From sequence record EU863408: a stretch of 64,000 nucleotides of DNA; one strand, 5' to 3'. The number at the start of each line of letters is the position of its first letter. The stretch's first letter is position 1. The stretch is from Escherichia phage JSE. Below, one piece after another: positions 3,584-61,789 of this stretch. The notes beneath the pieces are model-generated. The model did not search any database. It was not told the DNA's origin and saw nothing but the letters and a program-made list of their open reading frames with translations. Both the position numbers and the translations under genes were made by a program.

Positions 3584-5407
3584 TTATGACGCCATCCATG
3601 CCTTCCTCATGTCTGAATCTTCACTATAGAGCAAATCGAATAGCTCTTTATAGTTTTCCGGTAACGTGATGATCTCCATGACAGGATCGTTGATCACGCG
3701 ATGATAGTCTGATTCTGTGAGCGATGCTAAACCTTTGATATATCGAATGTTGTAACCTTTGATATTATCTCGGTCGTTCTCGAAATCTTCTAGGTCATAA
3801 TACCATCGAACATCATCACCTTTCTTTGGTTCAGCAATGATAATAGGTGTTTTGATAAACCGGATTCGTCCATCTTCGAACAATTCAGGCCAACGTGCAA
3901 AGAAAGAGATCAGACTAGGTTTAATAGACCCGATCCCGTCAGTATCAGCGTCGGTCATAATCGCAATATTTTTGTATTGCATAACTTCCAATGCATCAAC
4001 ACCAAATTGCAAGCCAGTGATCGCCATGATGTTAAAAATTTCGGCGTTCTTAACGATCTTTGCCTCCGGTTGTTCCCACGTTGTAAGAGTTTTGCCTCGC
4101 AACGGGAAACCTCCATGTAAATCTTGATCACGTACAGAGATCAGATAGTTGATCGCGGAATCACCTTCCGTCAAAAACAGGGTAGTTTCTGCGTCAGTTC
4201 CAATAAGGTTAGCTTTAACGTGTTTTGCTACCTTAGCCCGTTTTGCTGCCTTTGCTGCCTTAGTCGCTGCCGCTTTATCTGCTGCCTCTTTGCGTGCCAG
4301 GACTACAGCAATAATAGGCATGATAATGTTTTCTTTCTTCGCAATGACTTTAGCCAGCTTTTTAAAATCAAGATCAATATGACGCTTGATATCACCAGTT
4401 GGGTTAGTCAAGCGTTCTTTTGTCTGTGAATCAAAACGAAGGTTAGGCAATTCACGAACAATCAAAATACAGGTCAATCCAGACTTAACCGCAGCTTTAG
4501 TAACATCAACCTTATATTCTTTCTTGATTCGTTTTACAATCTCTTCACAAAGATCATCTGTCACGTAGTCTACGTGTGTTCCCCCGTTTTTGGTAAACAG
4601 ACCGTTAGCAAAGGATACTGATTTAAAACCTTCTCCCTCGACCGCCGGAACTAGGGCAAGTGAAAAGTTTTTATCTTCAATGACAAACGGATCATCATTG
4701 TATAGTTTAGCATAATCCTTGAACTTACTAACAATACGTTTACCATTAAACTTAAACGTGATCTTAGGAAATATTACGCTCAATGATTGCAGACGATCAT
4801 GAACAATATCTAAAACAGAGTTGTCCATCATATAACCTTCGAAGTGGTCGAAGTCTGGGCAAAATGTAACCTTTGTTCCCTTCAATTTTGATGGTTTCGA
4901 TGACCATGTGATATTTTCAGCACCGTTTGTACATTGAACGGTCATTTCTGTTTCGCCGTCACAGGTCACACCAGTAAACCAATCGCTAAAGAAATTTGAT
5001 AACGACGACCCAACACCGTTCATCCCTTGCGTTAATCGATTGGTATCATCAAAGTTAGACCCTGCTTTTGTTCGTGTCCATGCGGCTACAGGTTGCGGAA
5101 TCTGCGTACCCTCTGGGGTAGTAACCATATGTTGAGGAATACCGCGACCGTTGTCTGTTACCGTAACAATATTGTTTTGGATATCGACGCTAATCACATT
5201 GGCAAATTCAAAATTAGTGCGAATCGCCTCGTCTACAGAGTTGTCGATGATCTCATCAATGATTTTCACCAGTCCAGGAACATATGAAATTTTTGTCCAT
5301 TTACCGAACAGGAAACGTTGATGTTCTTCGTAAGTTGTTGATCCTATATACATTCCTGCACGCTTAAGGACATGCTCACGATCAGATAAAATGCGAAACT
5401 CACTCAT
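3584..5407 (-). CDS. 39: DNA topoisomerase II large subunit (GyrB-like), gene 39 fused with gene-60 region
   Basis: 607 aa; N-terminus MSEFRILSDREHVLKRAGMYIGS; GHKL ATPase and TOPRIM motifs; one continuous ORF through the region that T4 encodes as gene 60. Confidence 0.9.
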   Translation of the reverse strand: MSEFRILSDREHVLKRAGMYIGSTTYEEHQRFLFGKWTKISYVPGLVKIIDEIIDNSVDEAIRTNFEFANVISVDIQNNIVTVTDNGRGIPQHMVTTPEGTQIPQPVAAWTRTKAGSNFDDTNRLTQGMNGVGSSLSNFFSDWFTGVTCDGETEMTVQCTNGAENITWSSKPSKLKGTKVTFCPDFDHFEGYMMDNSVLDIVHDRLQSLSVIFPKITFKFNGKRIVSKFKDYAKLYNDDPFVIEDKNFSLALVPAVEGEGFKSVSFANGLFTKNGGTHVDYVTDDLCEEIVKRIKKEYKVDVTKAAVKSGLTCILIVRELPNLRFDSQTKERLTNPTGDIKRHIDLDFKKLAKVIAKKENIIMPIIAVVLARKEAADKAAATKAAKAAKRAKVAKHVKANLIGTDAETTLFLTEGDSAINYLISVRDQDLHGGFPLRGKTLTTWEQPEAKIVKNAEIFNIMAITGLQFGVDALEVMQYKNIAIMTDADTDGIGSIKPSLISFFARWPELFEDGRIRFIKTPIIIAEPKKGDDVRWYYDLEDFENDRDNIKGYNIRYIKGLASLTESDYHRVINDPVMEIITLPENYKELFDLLYSEDSDMRKAWMAS

Positions 5408-9295: not shown

Positions 9296-9799
9296 TTAAA
9301 TTAAAGAAAATTTGTAAATCTCTATCAGATCGCCATTACACGCGTAAACTTCCTCGATCTCATCAAGGATCATGGTCGTCCCTGTCTTGTATATGCATTC
9401 GCGCTCATCTGCCAACATAGCATACAAAGACAGTCGAGTAGTCGGATTGTCATACTCTTTAGACACCACTCGGTCAATAGCATGTTCGTAATAATTCATG
9501 CAAGGCTTGGTAGGTTTTATTGCAATAATCTTTCCTGTTGCATAAACATCTGTTGCAAAGTCCTCTGCTGTTGATTGCAGTGGCGTAAAGCTCATAGGAC
9601 GCTCTACAACGAAAGAATCACCTACAATTAAGGTATCCAGCTTACGGCCTTCTCTTTTGCTCACACCGCGATACAAGGCTTCATGATGCACTAACCGCTC
9701 AGTCTTTTCAATCAATCCATTAAGGATCGACATATCGATATTTTCTTTAGAGTTCATCACTTCATCAATGATGTTAAGTTCTTCTGGTGTAAATTGCAT
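9296..9799 (-). CDS. ADP-ribosyltransferase, ModA/ModB-like
   Basis: track ORF 9296-9865; start at ATG 9797-9799; R-S-E signature (YRGVSKREG, SFTPLQST, ADERE); T4 mod position. Confidence 0.55.
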   Translation of the reverse strand: MQFTPEELNIIDEVMNSKENIDMSILNGLIEKTERLVHHEALYRGVSKREGRKLDTLIVGDSFVVERPMSFTPLQSTAEDFATDVYATGKIIAIKPTKPCMNYYEHAIDRVVSKEYDNPTTRLSLYAMLADERECIYKTGTTMILDEIEEVYACNGDLIEIYKFSLI

Positions 9800-9808
9800 A
9801 ATAAAAAA

Positions 9809-9832
9809 GCCTCCAATCTTTCGACGGGAGGC
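9809..9832 (-). promoter_or_regulatory. hairpin sequestering the Shine-Dalgarno of the Mod-like gene
   Basis: minus-strand RNA GCCUCC-12nt-GGAGGC then U-run; the 3' arm contains the GGAGG about 10 nt before the ATG. Confidence 0.4.
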
Positions 9833-9880
9833 ATAATAAAACCATTGATTGAGTTTGTCAATCACAAAGTGTATGTGATC

Positions 9881-9888
9881 TATAAATA
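9881..9888 (+). promoter_or_regulatory. candidate T4-type late promoter (TATAAATA)
   Basis: exact TATAAATA about 30 nt before the plus-strand endonuclease ATG; RBS AAAGGAGA. Confidence 0.45.
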
Positions 9889-9917
9889 AGTTTGTTAGAA
9901 CTAAAGGAGATCACAAA

Positions 9918-10838
9918 ATGAACTATAAACGTATTTATGATAACCTGATTGAACGTGCTAAGACTAGAAATATCGACGGATACACAGAAAAGCATCACAT
10001 CATACCACGTTGTATGGATGGAAGCGATGACCCCACCAACCTAGTAAGACTTACACCAGAAGAACATTATATGGCACATCTTTTGTTAGTTAAGATATAT
10101 CCAGATAATAATAAACTGATATATGCCGCTAACATGATGTGCGTTTCTTGTCATGGACAAAGACAAACAAATAAGCGTCACGGATGGTTGCGTAGAAAAA
10201 CGGCGGAAGCGCATAGTAAAAGAATACGCGATAGAATGGAGAACGATCCAGAATATAGATCTAAGGTTTCGGAATGGGCTAGAAAAATGGGTAAAGCCAT
10301 GAAAGGCGTTAAGCGAGGACCGGAATTTAGCAGAAAGTTGGCAGAAAGAAACAGAAATACCGTGATGAGAGAAGAAACTAAACGTAAGATCGGGGAAGCC
10401 AACAAAGGAAAGAAACGTACAGAAGAATATAAAAGAAAACATAGTGAAAGGTATAAAGGTGAAGGTAATCCGATGTATGGTAAACGAGGAAAGGACCATC
10501 CGGCATATGGTACTAAACCGTGGAACAACCAAACATCATTTGTTGAGCAGAAAGCATGGTGGCGGTTCGCTGGCATGTTTTATGACTGGTATCGGAGAGA
10601 TATTGACCGTGGAACACATAAACGCCACGGTCATAAGAGAATGTTGGATGAGTTAGGTTTCGTTGGTTGGCGAGAAAAAGAGCCAGCCGCAGCAAGACGA
10701 TCAATTGAGATGTTCGCTAAAGGCTGGAATCCTTATGAAGACCAAGAATGGTTAGATTATGTTAATACCCGCTTTCCAAACGACGATAGTTTTCCGCGTT
10801 CTTCAACATATACAAGACAAACAGATCCTTCGCAGTAA
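9918..10838 (+). CDS. free-standing HNH homing endonuclease with NUMOD3-type repeats
   Basis: 306 aa; HNH core EKHHIIPRCMDGSDDPTNLVRLTPEEHYMAH; repeated basic ETKRKIGEANKGK-type motifs; the only long plus-strand gene here. Confidence 0.8.
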   Translation: MNYKRIYDNLIERAKTRNIDGYTEKHHIIPRCMDGSDDPTNLVRLTPEEHYMAHLLLVKIYPDNNKLIYAANMMCVSCHGQRQTNKRHGWLRRKTAEAHSKRIRDRMENDPEYRSKVSEWARKMGKAMKGVKRGPEFSRKLAERNRNTVMREETKRKIGEANKGKKRTEEYKRKHSERYKGEGNPMYGKRGKDHPAYGTKPWNNQTSFVEQKAWWRFAGMFYDWYRRDIDRGTHKRHGHKRMLDELGFVGWREKEPAAARRSIEMFAKGWNPYEDQEWLDYVNTRFPNDDSFPRSSTYTRQTDPSQ

Positions 10839-11280
10839 GCCCCAACGCCAAGAATTTACACATAATGAAATGGAGTTGGTCGACGGCTTCTAGGTATGTT
10901 TCCAAACGATCCGCCTCAGATAAATCACTAAAGAGGCGGTTTCGTGCTTCCATATGATTGGCTTTCCAGTGTTTCCACACCGCGCTAGCGTCTTTCCCGT
11001 TAGACATACCACCCAACGCAGTATACAGTTCTCGCGTTTCGTCGTCAAGCGCATTATCATTAGCTCGAATAAAATCTAAAATCTCTCCACATGTTTTCAA
11101 TTCATCAATTTTTGCTACCCACGGACGGTCATTAGATACCTGGTCTTGTAGTGCTTTCTGCATGTCCATCATGTGTTGAAATGGGTTATCACCGTTGGCG
11201 ATAATTTCTTTATATTTTTCTTCTGCAAAATTCAGAGTTTCCGCGTTTACTAAGTGTGCACAAGAATTAAATTCTGACAT
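10762..11280 (-). CDS. 56: dCTP pyrophosphatase (MazG-like)
   Basis: track ORF 10762-11286 (GTG); ATG at 11278-11280 with SD GAGGTG; about 172 aa; immediately downstream of primase as T4 gene 56. Confidence 0.75.
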   Translation of the reverse strand: MSEFNSCAHLVNAETLNFAEEKYKEIIANGDNPFQHMMDMQKALQDQVSNDRPWVAKIDELKTCGEILDFIRANDNALDDETRELYTALGGMSNGKDASAVWKHWKANHMEARNRLFSDLSEADRLETYLEAVDQLHFIMCKFLALGLTAKDLFVLYMLKNAENYRRLESGY

Positions 11281-11294
11281 ATTCACCTCATTAA

Positions 11295-50134: not shown

Positions 50135-50423
50135 GTTCTAGATTCTCCATATTATGCAACAGAACAAATTGTTGTGCGGCATATCCCCCCATAATAAAAC
50201 ACTGCCTAGAATCCATACATTTACTACGAGCATACATCTTCATAATATGGGCATGAAATTTCTGGCTGGTTTCAATGGAAGGAGATATTTTGTTTACATA
50301 TACTATCATTGCGCCGTCGAAATAATCAGTAAAGTCACCAGTTGGATCATATTGATCAGCACCGACACTTCCGACCGCAGTCAAGCATATTGCCGCTGTT
50401 AGAGTTTTACGAATAAATGACAT
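50121..50423 (-). CDS. small secreted protein (signal peptide)
   Basis: 100 aa; N-terminus MSFIRKTLTAAICLTAVGSVGA. Confidence 0.45.
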   Translation of the reverse strand: MSFIRKTLTAAICLTAVGSVGADQYDPTGDFTDYFDGAMIVYVNKISPSIETSQKFHAHIMKMYARSKCMDSRQCFIMGGYAAQQFVLLHNMENLEHEIQ

Positions 50424-50456: not shown

Positions 50457-50464
50457 TATTTATA
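50457..50464 (-). promoter_or_regulatory. candidate T4-type late promoter (TATAAATA)
   Basis: minus-strand TATAAATA about 33 nt before ATG of 50121-50423, inside a 9-bp inverted repeat. Confidence 0.35.
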
Positions 50465-61570: not shown

Positions 61571-61789
61571 TTATTTATATCGCTTTCTCTCGCGACGTTT
61601 TTGATCTTCTTCCTTGATAGAGTTAAATGCATCAAAAAGACACATGACACTAATAATAAACATAACCGTATTTTCTACGATATCCCACGGCTTCGCATCA
61701 GTACAGATCCCCCAAACGGTAAGAAATGCAAATAGTGCAGAAGAGATCACAAGCATGATACTTGCTAAGATATAAAAAGTCATTTTCAT
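61571..61789 (-). CDS. small membrane protein
   Basis: 72 aa; two TM helices, basic tail. Confidence 0.45.
   Translation of the reverse strand: MKMTFYILASIMLVISSALFAFLTVWGICTDAKPWDIVENTVMFIISVMCLFDAFNSIKEEDQKRRERKRYK

Follow-up and report, generated by a model that had tools for sequence, protein, structure and literature searches.

We consider it quite likely that, in an RB49-like phage, a mob-like homing endonuclease gene (HEG) settled in the short spacer that follows gene 56, in the orientation opposed to the early genes, and that the overlap between the two coding sequences is passive. The element lies in the 64,000 nt of Escherichia phage JSE (EU863408) that were analysed here, which we call the window. 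It is a free-standing, mob-like HNH HEG and, as such, an ordinary and already annotated mobile element; both genes and their overlap are already annotated in phage JSE, a Krischvirus. Literature searches for a prior description of the convergent HEG/gene 56 arrangement found nothing specific.

The endonuclease gene and gene 56

The endonuclease gene occupies positions 9918..10838 on the plus strand and encodes 306 amino acids, corresponding to the JSE 'Homing endonuclease' (YP_002922087.1); this protein and the JSE gp56 are exact matches to the open reading frames of the window. An earlier note on this DNA had recognised an endonuclease here, and profile searches bear this out. The protein matches phrog_655, 'homing endonuclease' (E=2e-78), and phrog_12434, 'HNH endonuclease' (E=6e-11), and contains a NUMOD3 module (PF07460) at residues 164-189, with E=4.7e-7 and 30.1 bits against a cutoff of 20.4 bits. 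The Pfam HNH profile (PF01844) gave E=9e-4 and 19.8 bits, which is under its 21.4-bit cutoff. The residues of the HH..N..H..H pattern, H26, H27, N41, H50 and H54, are invariant in an alignment of 18 family sequences. No sequence match to the endonuclease was found in the PDB, and the top Foldseek matches to PDB structures are HNH nucleases (McrA, Cas8-HNH and Gme), all with E>1. Among the haplotypes of the cassette that carries the gene (see below), 49 of the 68 variable codons in the body of the endonuclease show synonymous changes only, a pattern indicating that the body is under purifying selection.

The element can be compared with the T4 MobA-E proteins and mob-like HNH endonucleases such as MobE at nrdA/nrdB, in which an HNH domain is likewise followed by NUMOD-type modules. 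These genes, too, are free-standing, lie in a spacer beside a conserved nucleotide-metabolism gene and occur sporadically among close relatives; the likeness was drawn from these features. For JSE, Table 5 of PMC2993671 gives two HNH genes of the mob-like kind. Unlike the JSE element, the T4 mob genes are oriented as their neighbours, and mobA, mobC, mobD and mobE are promoter-less cassettes (PMC2988022).

Gene 56 lies on the minus strand at 10762..11280 and encodes a dCTPase/dUTPase-type NTP pyrophosphohydrolase of 172 amino acids, here in an allele that is linked to the HEG. A mechanical reading of the open frame (10762..11286) places its start at a GTG at 11286. This start was rejected; the GTG falls inside the Shine-Dalgarno sequence GAGGTG, and the true start is the ATG at 11280 (MSEFNSC...), in agreement with RB49, G37-3 and the JSE annotation. 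The earlier note had assigned the minus-strand frame to gene 56, and it is a full-length homologue of that gene: its C terminus aligns end to end with the RB49 and Slopekvirus proteins, and the stop is at the same position in the window (...LKNAENYRRLESGY) and in RB49 (...LKNAENFARQERGY). Matches to gp56 at 100% query coverage are present in 1397 phage records. The profile matches are phrog_173 (E=4e-33) and Pfam dUTPase_2, the latter with 20.0 bits and thus under its 22.9-bit cutoff. Outside the overlap, 41 of 44 variable codons of gene 56 are synonymous-only. The label 'dCTPase' comes from homology only, and such a role is doubtful because Krischvirus has been listed without an hmC transferase or hmC pathway (PMC12115623, Table 4); we infer that a role as dUTPase or general NTP pyrophosphatase is more likely.

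The two genes converge and share the 77 nt from 10762 to 10838, so that the overlap read in the earlier note is confirmed at its full length. The same 77 nt are shared in the GenBank annotation of G37-3 and in all nine examined metagenomic or genomic loci with a complete endonuclease gene; in a tenth locus (L014) the endonuclease gene runs off the contig end. Read from the sequence, codon position 2 of the endonuclease frame lies opposite codon position 3 of gene 56. The length of the overlap is statistically unremarkable, because for 18% of 67 proxy genes in the window the antisense frame with the same offset is also open for at least 77 nt from the 3' end of the gene. For the other two offsets this holds for 27-48% of the proxy genes.

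The late-promoter motif and possible antisense transcription

The earlier note placed an exact TATAAATA about 30 nt upstream of the endonuclease ATG, and it is found there, on the plus strand at 9881-9888, 29 nt before the start codon. It is followed after 15 nt by the Shine-Dalgarno sequence AAGGAG (9904..9909, plus strand), which lies 8 nt before the ATG. Both elements are invariant in eight distinct cassette haplotypes that differ at ~10% of sites and in which 8 of 56 intergenic columns vary. The motif is single-copy in each fetched locus that has one. Late promoters resembling those of T4, with TATAAATA at -13 to -6, have been reported for RB49-type phages (PMC1524935), and the predicted transcript start therefore lies near 9894.

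Related HEGs are present in two other genera. The HEG of Slopekvirus phT4A (YP_010088948.1) encodes 219 amino acids, is 44% identical and is convergent to gene 56 with an overlap of 7 nt. The relative in Acinetobacter Lazarusvirus (AB-Navy4, UNI74483.1) encodes 312 amino acids, has 39% identity and is also convergent to gene 56, with a gap of 23 nt between the two genes and a terminator in between. These HEGs resemble the JSE element in protein family, niche, orientation to gene 56 and an upstream TATAAATA, which is found at 1468-1475 of Lazarusvirus locus L018, 25 nt before the ATG of the HEG, and at 1791-1798 of Slopekvirus locus L003. Slopekvirus differs from JSE in having a small additional open reading frame between the promoter motif and the HEG, and one exception in this genus, Prick1, has CATAAATA in place of TATAAATA.

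The support for TATAAATA as a candidate gp55-type late promoter is purely positional and comparative. Enrichment of the motif is absent across the window, which holds 3 copies with 5.7 +/- 2.4 expected (at least 3 in 92 of 100 shuffles). Because the related HEGs in other genera have the motif upstream, comparison lends the late-promoter reading good support. Given this recurrence and the invariance across cassette haplotypes, TATAAATA very probably represents a genuine late promoter.

Endonuclease-specific promoters in T4 are middle or late (PMC2988022). For I-TevI, I-TevII, I-TevIII, T4 segB and Aeh1 mobE, a middle or late promoter just upstream delays expression (PMC2988022), an arrangement comparable to that in JSE. 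The I-TevI group adds an RNA hairpin, which in read-through transcripts masks the ribosome-binding site. A similar structure can be drawn in JSE (9874-9881/9908-9915; -12 kcal/mol, z=-2.6); in most other haplotypes, however, the 3' arm reads GACCAC and a mismatch breaks the pairing, and we treated this hairpin as a chance structure. The closest T4 precedent in orientation is segD, between genes 23 and 24, which is the sole T4 HEG opposed to its neighbours and is antisense like the JSE element (PMC2988022). No promoter can be identified for segD, and its expression is considered to be minimal, whereas the JSE HEG is preceded by a conserved TATAAATA and has a good ribosome-binding site.

A second hairpin lies downstream of the endonuclease stop codon, inside gene 56. 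At 10906..10945 on the plus strand, a stem of CCGCCTC/GAGGCGG (10911-10939) with a 15-nt loop is followed by TTTCGTGCTT and forms a candidate weak terminator of the endonuclease transcript. It folds with -16.9 kcal/mol (z = -4.06), and 0 of 200 shuffles fold as well. ARNOLD annotates it as a terminator in G37-3. Among the haplotypes its stems are invariant and its loop is variable, and RB49 has no equivalent. A simple pattern scan for terminators passed it over, its T-run being too weak.

This hairpin and the promoter motif raise the possibility that the overlap is a selected regulatory device, in which late antisense transcription would cross the 3' end of gene 56 and continue as far as the hairpin at 10911-10939. 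Such transcription could silence or destabilise the gene 56 mRNA late in infection, or convergent transcription could limit the expression of the endonuclease. The arrangement is retained in all haplotypes examined, the stable plus-strand hairpin has invariant stems and is missing from RB49, and intact haplotypes show no variation in the first 54 nt of the overlap, which could point to a constraint on the RNA or on the endonuclease tail; invading endonuclease genes can moreover create antisense transcripts (PMC2988022). However, the related HEGs in the same niche need no such overlap, as the 23-nt gap with its terminator in Lazarusvirus and the 7 nt in Slopekvirus indicate. A convergent HEG transcript that continues past its stop codon would be antisense to gene 56 even without coding overlap. 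The U-tract of the hairpin is weak, which is in line with the result of the pattern scan, and invariant runs of 68, 55 and 54 nt occur elsewhere in the cassette too. We therefore regard a regulatory function of the overlap as unlikely.

It is similarly improbable that the convergent layout as a whole is a selected design that anchors the element, with the 3' end of the HEG in gene 56, an embedded hairpin and a late-only promoter. If it were, precise loss of the element would be costly, and late antisense RNA would tune gene 56 or the nuclease. In at least three Straboviridae genera the clade would then have evolved jointly with gene 56, and it could drive the replacement of a whole essential gene by a foreign version.

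The C-terminal tail of the endonuclease

The earlier note had pointed to the C-terminal ~25 residues of the two proteins as the place where conservation should be compared. Conservation holds for gp56, which aligns with its homologues up to the stop codon, and fails for the endonuclease, whose homology stops at residue 285. The overlap segment is thus conserved in gp56 homologues and not in endonuclease homologues. Beyond the cassette variants, which are 93-94% identical, the closest relatives of the endonuclease are alignable up to residue 285, a point ~11 nt inside gene 56. A tblastn search gave a Slopekvirus match that ends at the same residue. The short-form members of the family (218-222 aa) end 3-8 residues past a W(L/V)xW motif, before the tail. 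In the AlphaFold2 model the last predicted helix spans residues 276-285, and the residues that follow are predicted coil with a pLDDT of 49 that drops to 35. What remains is a non-conserved tail of residues 286-306, FPNDDSFPRSSTYTRQTDPSQ, encoded at 10773..10835 on the plus strand, antisense to the 3' end of gene 56.

The substitutions within the overlap point in the same direction. All six are silent in gp56 and change the tail: 4 of 4 variable gp56 codons are synonymous and 5 of 5 variable endonuclease codons are amino-acid-changing, in what is a small sample. Two further tail changes, in the broken copy P0220, are also silent in gp56. Within the overlap the pattern does not suggest purifying selection on both proteins. 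Because homology and the last helix end at residue 285 and the substitutions change the tail, ~63 of the 77 nt would represent a hitch-hiking tail rather than a conserved dual-coding segment. From the sequence comparisons and the model, the long overlap looks passive, a by-product of compaction in which gp56 sets the sequence and the tail follows. Past its conserved part, the endonuclease frame would simply happen to be open for 21 further codons on the antisense strand.

It is very unlikely, in our view, that the 21-residue tail is functional, for example as a DNA-contacting extension or as the remnant of a long-form linker, with 10773-10835 dual-coding and selected in both frames. The phrog_655 profile alignment does extend to residue 297, and MAFFT sets FPNDD..SFPRSSTYT opposite FPDIDISKFRFQPAFKYA of the long-form members. 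In intact copies, none of the 17 gp56 codons that come first in the overlap varies at its third position, compared to 41 of 147 codons elsewhere in gene 56, which has a nominal probability of ~0.004 in a test that was picked post hoc, with the data already seen. Against this, the relatives that stop before the tail include the Slopekvirus protein, which is the closest one besides the cassette variants, the tail is predicted to be coil of low and falling pLDDT, and every variable codon in or at the tail changes an amino acid while gp56 stays unaltered. In addition, as read from the alignment, RB49's own gene 56 is open for ~19 codons in the same antisense frame, and therefore the open frame would be a property of the gp56 sequence.

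The cassette, its borders and its distribution

Compared with RB49-type phages, the HEG-carrying phages JSE and G37-3 differ by a cassette. In a three-way alignment it spans ~9862..11256 and consists of the endonuclease gene and a foreign allele of nearly all of gene 56; its counterpart in RB49 is 8 nt of intergenic DNA and that phage's own gene 56. The flanks are 98-100% identical to RB49, and the body of gene 56 is ~60% identical in DNA and 57% in protein. On the right, identity with RB49 is regained at 11257, corresponding to codon 8 of gene 56. On the left, it ends just after TGTCAA, at the modB early promoter and its stem-loop (9799..9861, minus strand), an element of the PeSL type that scores 11/12 in a sigma-70 scan and is annotated in GEC-3S. 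Its -35 box TTGACA is at 9861-9856, its -10 box TATTAT at 9838-9833 and the modB ATG at 9799-9797; a hairpin at ~9832-9809, which holds the GGAGG ribosome-binding site, folds with -20.8 kcal/mol (z = -4.7). PeSLs were described for RB49 and phi1 and were proposed to mediate HEG-independent module shuffling (PMC2839356).

The HEG is absent in 55 of 57 Krischvirus records, the 55 being listed at 95-99% identity, and G37-3 is the one record of the 57 that holds most of the query; the HEG-carrying Krischvirus phages are G37-3 and the window itself. In gene 61, G37-3 differs by 3 nt from GEC-3S, which lacks the HEG, and by 17 nt from JSE, which carries it. By their flanking genes, phages with and without the HEG are interleaved, and the gene 61 pattern fits a lateral spread of the cassette. 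The search for a donor of the foreign gene 56 allele did not find one: the best matches outside the cassette are 64-66% identical, and they lie on T4-like contigs without the HEG, in a different neighbourhood that has Mom-like, Tad2-like and Dam genes downstream.

In Slopekvirus, 22 of 114 records that match at >=95% identity carry the HEG. Compared to KP15, which lacks it, the HEG is a clean insertion of ~870 nt, and the junctions are clean in Krischvirus as well. Over the last 126 nt of Slopekvirus gene 56, 29 of 42 codons are changed, 22 of them silently, compared to 5 changed codons among the first 137. Gene 56 is therefore strongly diverged beside the HEG in two genera, with the divergence limited to the last 126 nt in Slopekvirus and affecting the whole gene in JSE. 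A common origin of the HEG-linked gene 56 3' ends in Krischvirus and Slopekvirus was considered and rejected, as over the last 132 nt JSE has an identity of 0.58 with phT4A (with HEG) and of 0.61 with KP15 (without HEG); the JSE and Slopekvirus 3' ends have only a short CGTCGTT stretch in common.

The T4 element at the same locus is segF, which is inserted at soc/56 and targets gene 56 according to Table 1 of PMC2988022 and to PMC2330249, both of which summarise Belle, Landthaler and Shub 2002. Like the JSE element, SegF is encoded by a free-standing HEG directly downstream of gene 56. In these summaries, SegF targets gene 56 in the phage that lacks the HEG and causes the gene 56 allele of the neighbour to be excluded or co-converted. 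The segF open reading frame also overlaps a neighbouring one, by 11 bp. SegF is a GIY-YIG enzyme, shown as a hybrid in the review's drawing, and the JSE element is of the HNH/NUMOD3 type; segF is co-directional with gene 56 and has no promoter of its own, whereas the JSE element is convergent and has its own late-promoter motif.

We infer that the JSE endonuclease cleaves gene 56, and the process would be one of intronless homing with co-conversion. Late in infection, RNA polymerase with gp55 would start from TATAAATA at ~9894 and produce an mRNA with a short leader. The nuclease would then cut the gene 56 region of co-infecting HEG-less phages, and double-strand-break repair would transfer to the broken genome both the HEG and the gene 56 allele beside it, which resists cleavage. 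It is very unlikely that the cassette came instead by HEG-independent modular recombination between the PeSL and the conserved patch of gene 56, with the endonuclease as a passenger or inactive: the left junction does adjoin a PeSL-type element at its -35 box (PMC2839356), the right one falls within the conserved 5' end of gene 56 that codes for FNSCAH and one metagenomic contig has an endonuclease copy broken into two parts of 47 and 183 aa, but there is no PeSL at the right junction, the endonuclease body is under purifying selection with invariant catalytic residues, and in three genera HEGs of this one clade are associated with the gene 56 3' end, with local divergence of the gene 56 sequence.

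With homing as the preferred explanation, the striking 77-nt overlap would be the passive read-through tail of an annotated selfish gene and not the result of opposite-strand co-evolution of two proteins. Gene 56 appears as a recurrent landing site for unrelated HEGs, with the GIY-YIG enzyme SegF in T4 and the HNH clade in Krischvirus, Slopekvirus and Lazarusvirus. Members of the HNH clade consistently oppose the direction of early transcription and have a late-promoter motif of their own, in contrast to the T4 paradigm, where 14 of the 15 endonuclease genes point the same way as their neighbours. The Krischvirus element is linked to the exchange of an entire gene for an essential enzyme. This illustrates how such elements move foreign core-gene alleles between therapy phages, JSE having been isolated for therapy.

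The endonuclease gene and gene 56

The endonuclease gene of phage JSE is a plus-strand ORF of 306 aa (9918-10838) with the motif AAGGAG (9904-9909, plus strand) 8 nt before its ATG, and it converges with gene 56 on the minus strand (10762-11280, 172 aa), for which the RB49, G37-3, and JSE annotations all use the ATG at 11280. A GTG at 11286 was rejected as the gene 56 start; it lies inside the GAGGTG ribosome-binding site. The two coding sequences share 77 nt (10762-10838), which confirms the convergent overlap of about 77 nt that the earlier note had read from the ORF ends at 10838 and 10762. The overlap is real and is already on record. The endonuclease and gp56 are identical to YP_002922087.1 ('Homing endonuclease') and YP_002922088.1 of phage JSE, respectively, and the G37-3 record annotates both genes with an identical 77-nt overlap. 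Nine contigs of metagenomic or genomic origin also have the pair and its overlap; a tenth contig (L014) ends within the endonuclease gene.

The endonuclease matches phrog_655 'homing endonuclease' (E=2e-78) and Pfam NUMOD3 (E=5e-7), and it has kept the HH...N...H...H residues that are invariant across the 18-member family alignment. The Pfam HNH model scored slightly short of its threshold (19.8 versus 21.4 bits), and fold and PDB searches with the endonuclease gave no significant match. Judged from its sequence, the element is a mob-like, free-standing HNH homing endonuclease gene at the gene 56 hot spot, and it is already in public records. A comparison of eight distinct haplotypes of its cassette showed its body to be synonymous-only at 49 of 68 variable codons, and the gene is therefore maintained by selection. 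The cassette varies most in the stretch right after the HNH motif (10017-10211), where a 9-nt indel explains the difference between 306 aa in JSE and 309 aa in other haplotypes. One metagenomic contig of 141 kb apparently has the gene in two fragments (P0217, 47 aa, and P0220, 183 aa), a sign that this copy may be decaying.

The minus-strand ORF encodes a full-length homologue of T4-type gp56. Because the hydroxymethylcytosine pathway is absent from Krischvirus, the RB49-like phages that include JSE (PMC12115623, Table 4), 'dCTPase' is a homology label here, and a role as a dUTPase or NTP-pyrophosphatase is more likely.

The overlapping coding stretch

The earlier note had proposed to check whether the C-terminal residues of either protein are conserved in homologues. 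This turned out to be the case for gp56, the C terminus of which aligns with RB49 and Slopekvirus and has the same stop position. The endonuclease tail (residues 286 to 306) lies beyond the family homology, so that the overlap, although real as ORFs, is mostly a nonconserved tail. Family homology stops at '...GWNPYEDQEWLDYVNTR', short-form relatives end 3 to 8 residues past the W(L/V)xW motif, and in tblastn the alignment with Slopekvirus reaches no further than residue 285 (nucleotide 10772). AlphaFold2 places the last helix at residues 276 to 285 and predicts the tail as coil, with the pLDDT falling from 49 to 35.

Codon position 2 of the endonuclease frame is opposite codon position 3 of gene 56 throughout the shared stretch. 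The intact haplotypes have four substitutions there, all synonymous in gp56 and all altering the tail, and the broken copy P0220 has two further tail changes (N to D and D to G) that, by reading of the frames, are silent in gp56. In 18% of proxy genes, an antisense frame of the same offset has no stop for 77 nt or more. These results favour a passive endonuclease tail and are most simply explained by loss of the spacer between the two convergent genes, with the endonuclease frame continuing to the first chance stop. A caveat is that no intact copy varies in the first 54 nt of the overlap, which has a nominal probability of about 0.004 given the gene 56 synonymous rate, for a test picked after seeing the data; other parts of the cassette also have invariant stretches, of 68, 55, and 54 nt.

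The cassette in Krischvirus

Alignment of the window with G37-3 and RB49 defined the cassette. The window diverges from RB49, in which the gene 56-modB spacer is only 69 nt, across about 9862-11256, covering the endonuclease gene and nearly the whole of gene 56 (about 60% DNA and 57% protein identity), and the flanks are 98 to 100% identical. On the left, the cassette borders directly on the -35 box (9856-9861) of the early promoter of modB, which together with its stem-loop is a PeSL-type element, as described for RB49/phi1 (PMC2839356), and the right border is at gene 56 codon 8, within the conserved FNSCAH-coding stretch. At the left junction (window 9860-9870), contig locus L009 (about 3925-3935) reads CAACTATAAAG versus CAATCACAAAG in the other haplotypes, so RB49-like sequence reaches 3 nt further there, a hint that this junction may have been resolved independently.

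G37-3 is the one carrier of the cassette among 57 matching phage records. A search for the donor of its gene 56 allele found none; the best outside matches are 64 to 66% identical and are on unrelated T4-like contigs without the endonuclease gene. In the flanking gene 61, carriers and noncarriers are interleaved, and G37-3 differs by 3 nt from the noncarrier GEC-3S versus 17 nt from JSE, a pattern that fits lateral spread of the cassette.

Some cassette-carrying Krischvirus contigs have an extra ORF with a NUMOD4 match (142 to 184 aa) just upstream of gene 61 (L007 897-1325; L010 899-1453; L013 897-1325), which is absent from the window. Gene 61 of L007 and L010, the two loci compared, differs at 64 to 89 of 1,029 nt from all other Krischvirus copies, which differ at no more than 35 among themselves. 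This ORF appears to be a second homing endonuclease gene that has a co-converted flank of its own. Shortened or split calls on single contigs, for gene 61 (L008 1719-2486, 255 versus 342 aa) and for modB and srd (L010 4041-5308), may be assembly errors or real disruptions.

Gene 56 as a landing site and the candidate late promoter

Beyond the cassette's own variants (93 to 94% identical), the closest relatives of the endonuclease are in Slopekvirus (e.g., phT4A; 44% identical, 219 aa), directly downstream of gene 56 and convergent with it, with a 7-nt overlap. An Acinetobacter Lazarusvirus relative (39% identical, 312 aa) is placed in the same way, separated from gene 56 by a 23-nt gap containing a terminator hairpin. 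More distant family members, such as that of Ackermannviridae SKML-39, are located away from gene 56. Compared to the noncarrier KP15, Slopekvirus carriers have a clean insertion of about 870 nt, and their gene 56 has changes in 29 of its last 42 codons (22 silent) versus 5 of its first 137. By its sequence pattern, this dense patch is the footprint expected beside a homing endonuclease target, through co-conversion or cleavage immunity. T4 SegF is reported to be inserted at soc/56, to target gene 56, and to exclude the T2 gene 56 allele (PMC2988022, Table 1; PMC2330249), so gene 56 is a known landing site for such elements.

The T4 late-promoter consensus that the earlier note had placed upstream of the endonuclease ATG is indeed there (TATAAATA, 9881-9888, plus strand), and comparison strengthened its reading as a late promoter. 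Together with the overlap, which is mostly nonconserved tail, this leaves the note's interpretation partly supported. With 3 copies in the window versus 5.7 expected, the motif shows no over-representation; it occurs once per fetched locus in those loci that have it, and is unchanged in all eight haplotypes, with 8 of 56 intergenic columns varying. It recurs in Lazarusvirus, 25 nt before the endonuclease ATG, and in Slopekvirus, upstream of a small ORF leading into the endonuclease gene; Slopekvirus Prick1 has CATAAATA instead. In phT4A, this small ORF (L003 1817-2017, plus strand, about 66 aa) overlaps the endonuclease start, and the Prick1 annotation has minus-strand ORFs over the matching DNA. 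RB49-type phages have been reported to use late promoters of the T4 type, in which the motif is at -13 to -6 (PMC1524935), and this position predicts a transcript start near 9894, and endonuclease-specific promoters of T4 are middle or late (PMC2988022). Late expression of the endonuclease gene is thus well supported by sequence comparison. The other copies of TATAAATA are both on the minus strand: that at 50457-50464 has a classical placement, 34 nt before an ATG at 50423, and that at 61572-61579 overlaps the 3' end of an ORF (61571-61789), and no ORF begins in the next 280 nt or so downstream of it.

Inside gene 56 there is a candidate terminator hairpin for the plus strand (10911-10939; -16.9 kcal/mol, z=-4.06), which the G37-3 record annotates as a terminator. 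Its stems are invariant and its loop is variable across haplotypes, and alignment revealed no equivalent in RB49. A pattern scan for terminators did not call it, and its U-tract is weak. Termination at this hairpin would give a late transcript that is antisense to gene 56 over about 180 nt. T4 endonuclease genes are co-oriented with their neighbours, segD being the sole exception (PMC2988022). The convergent orientation together with the gene's own candidate late promoter is conserved across three genera and is of modest interest.
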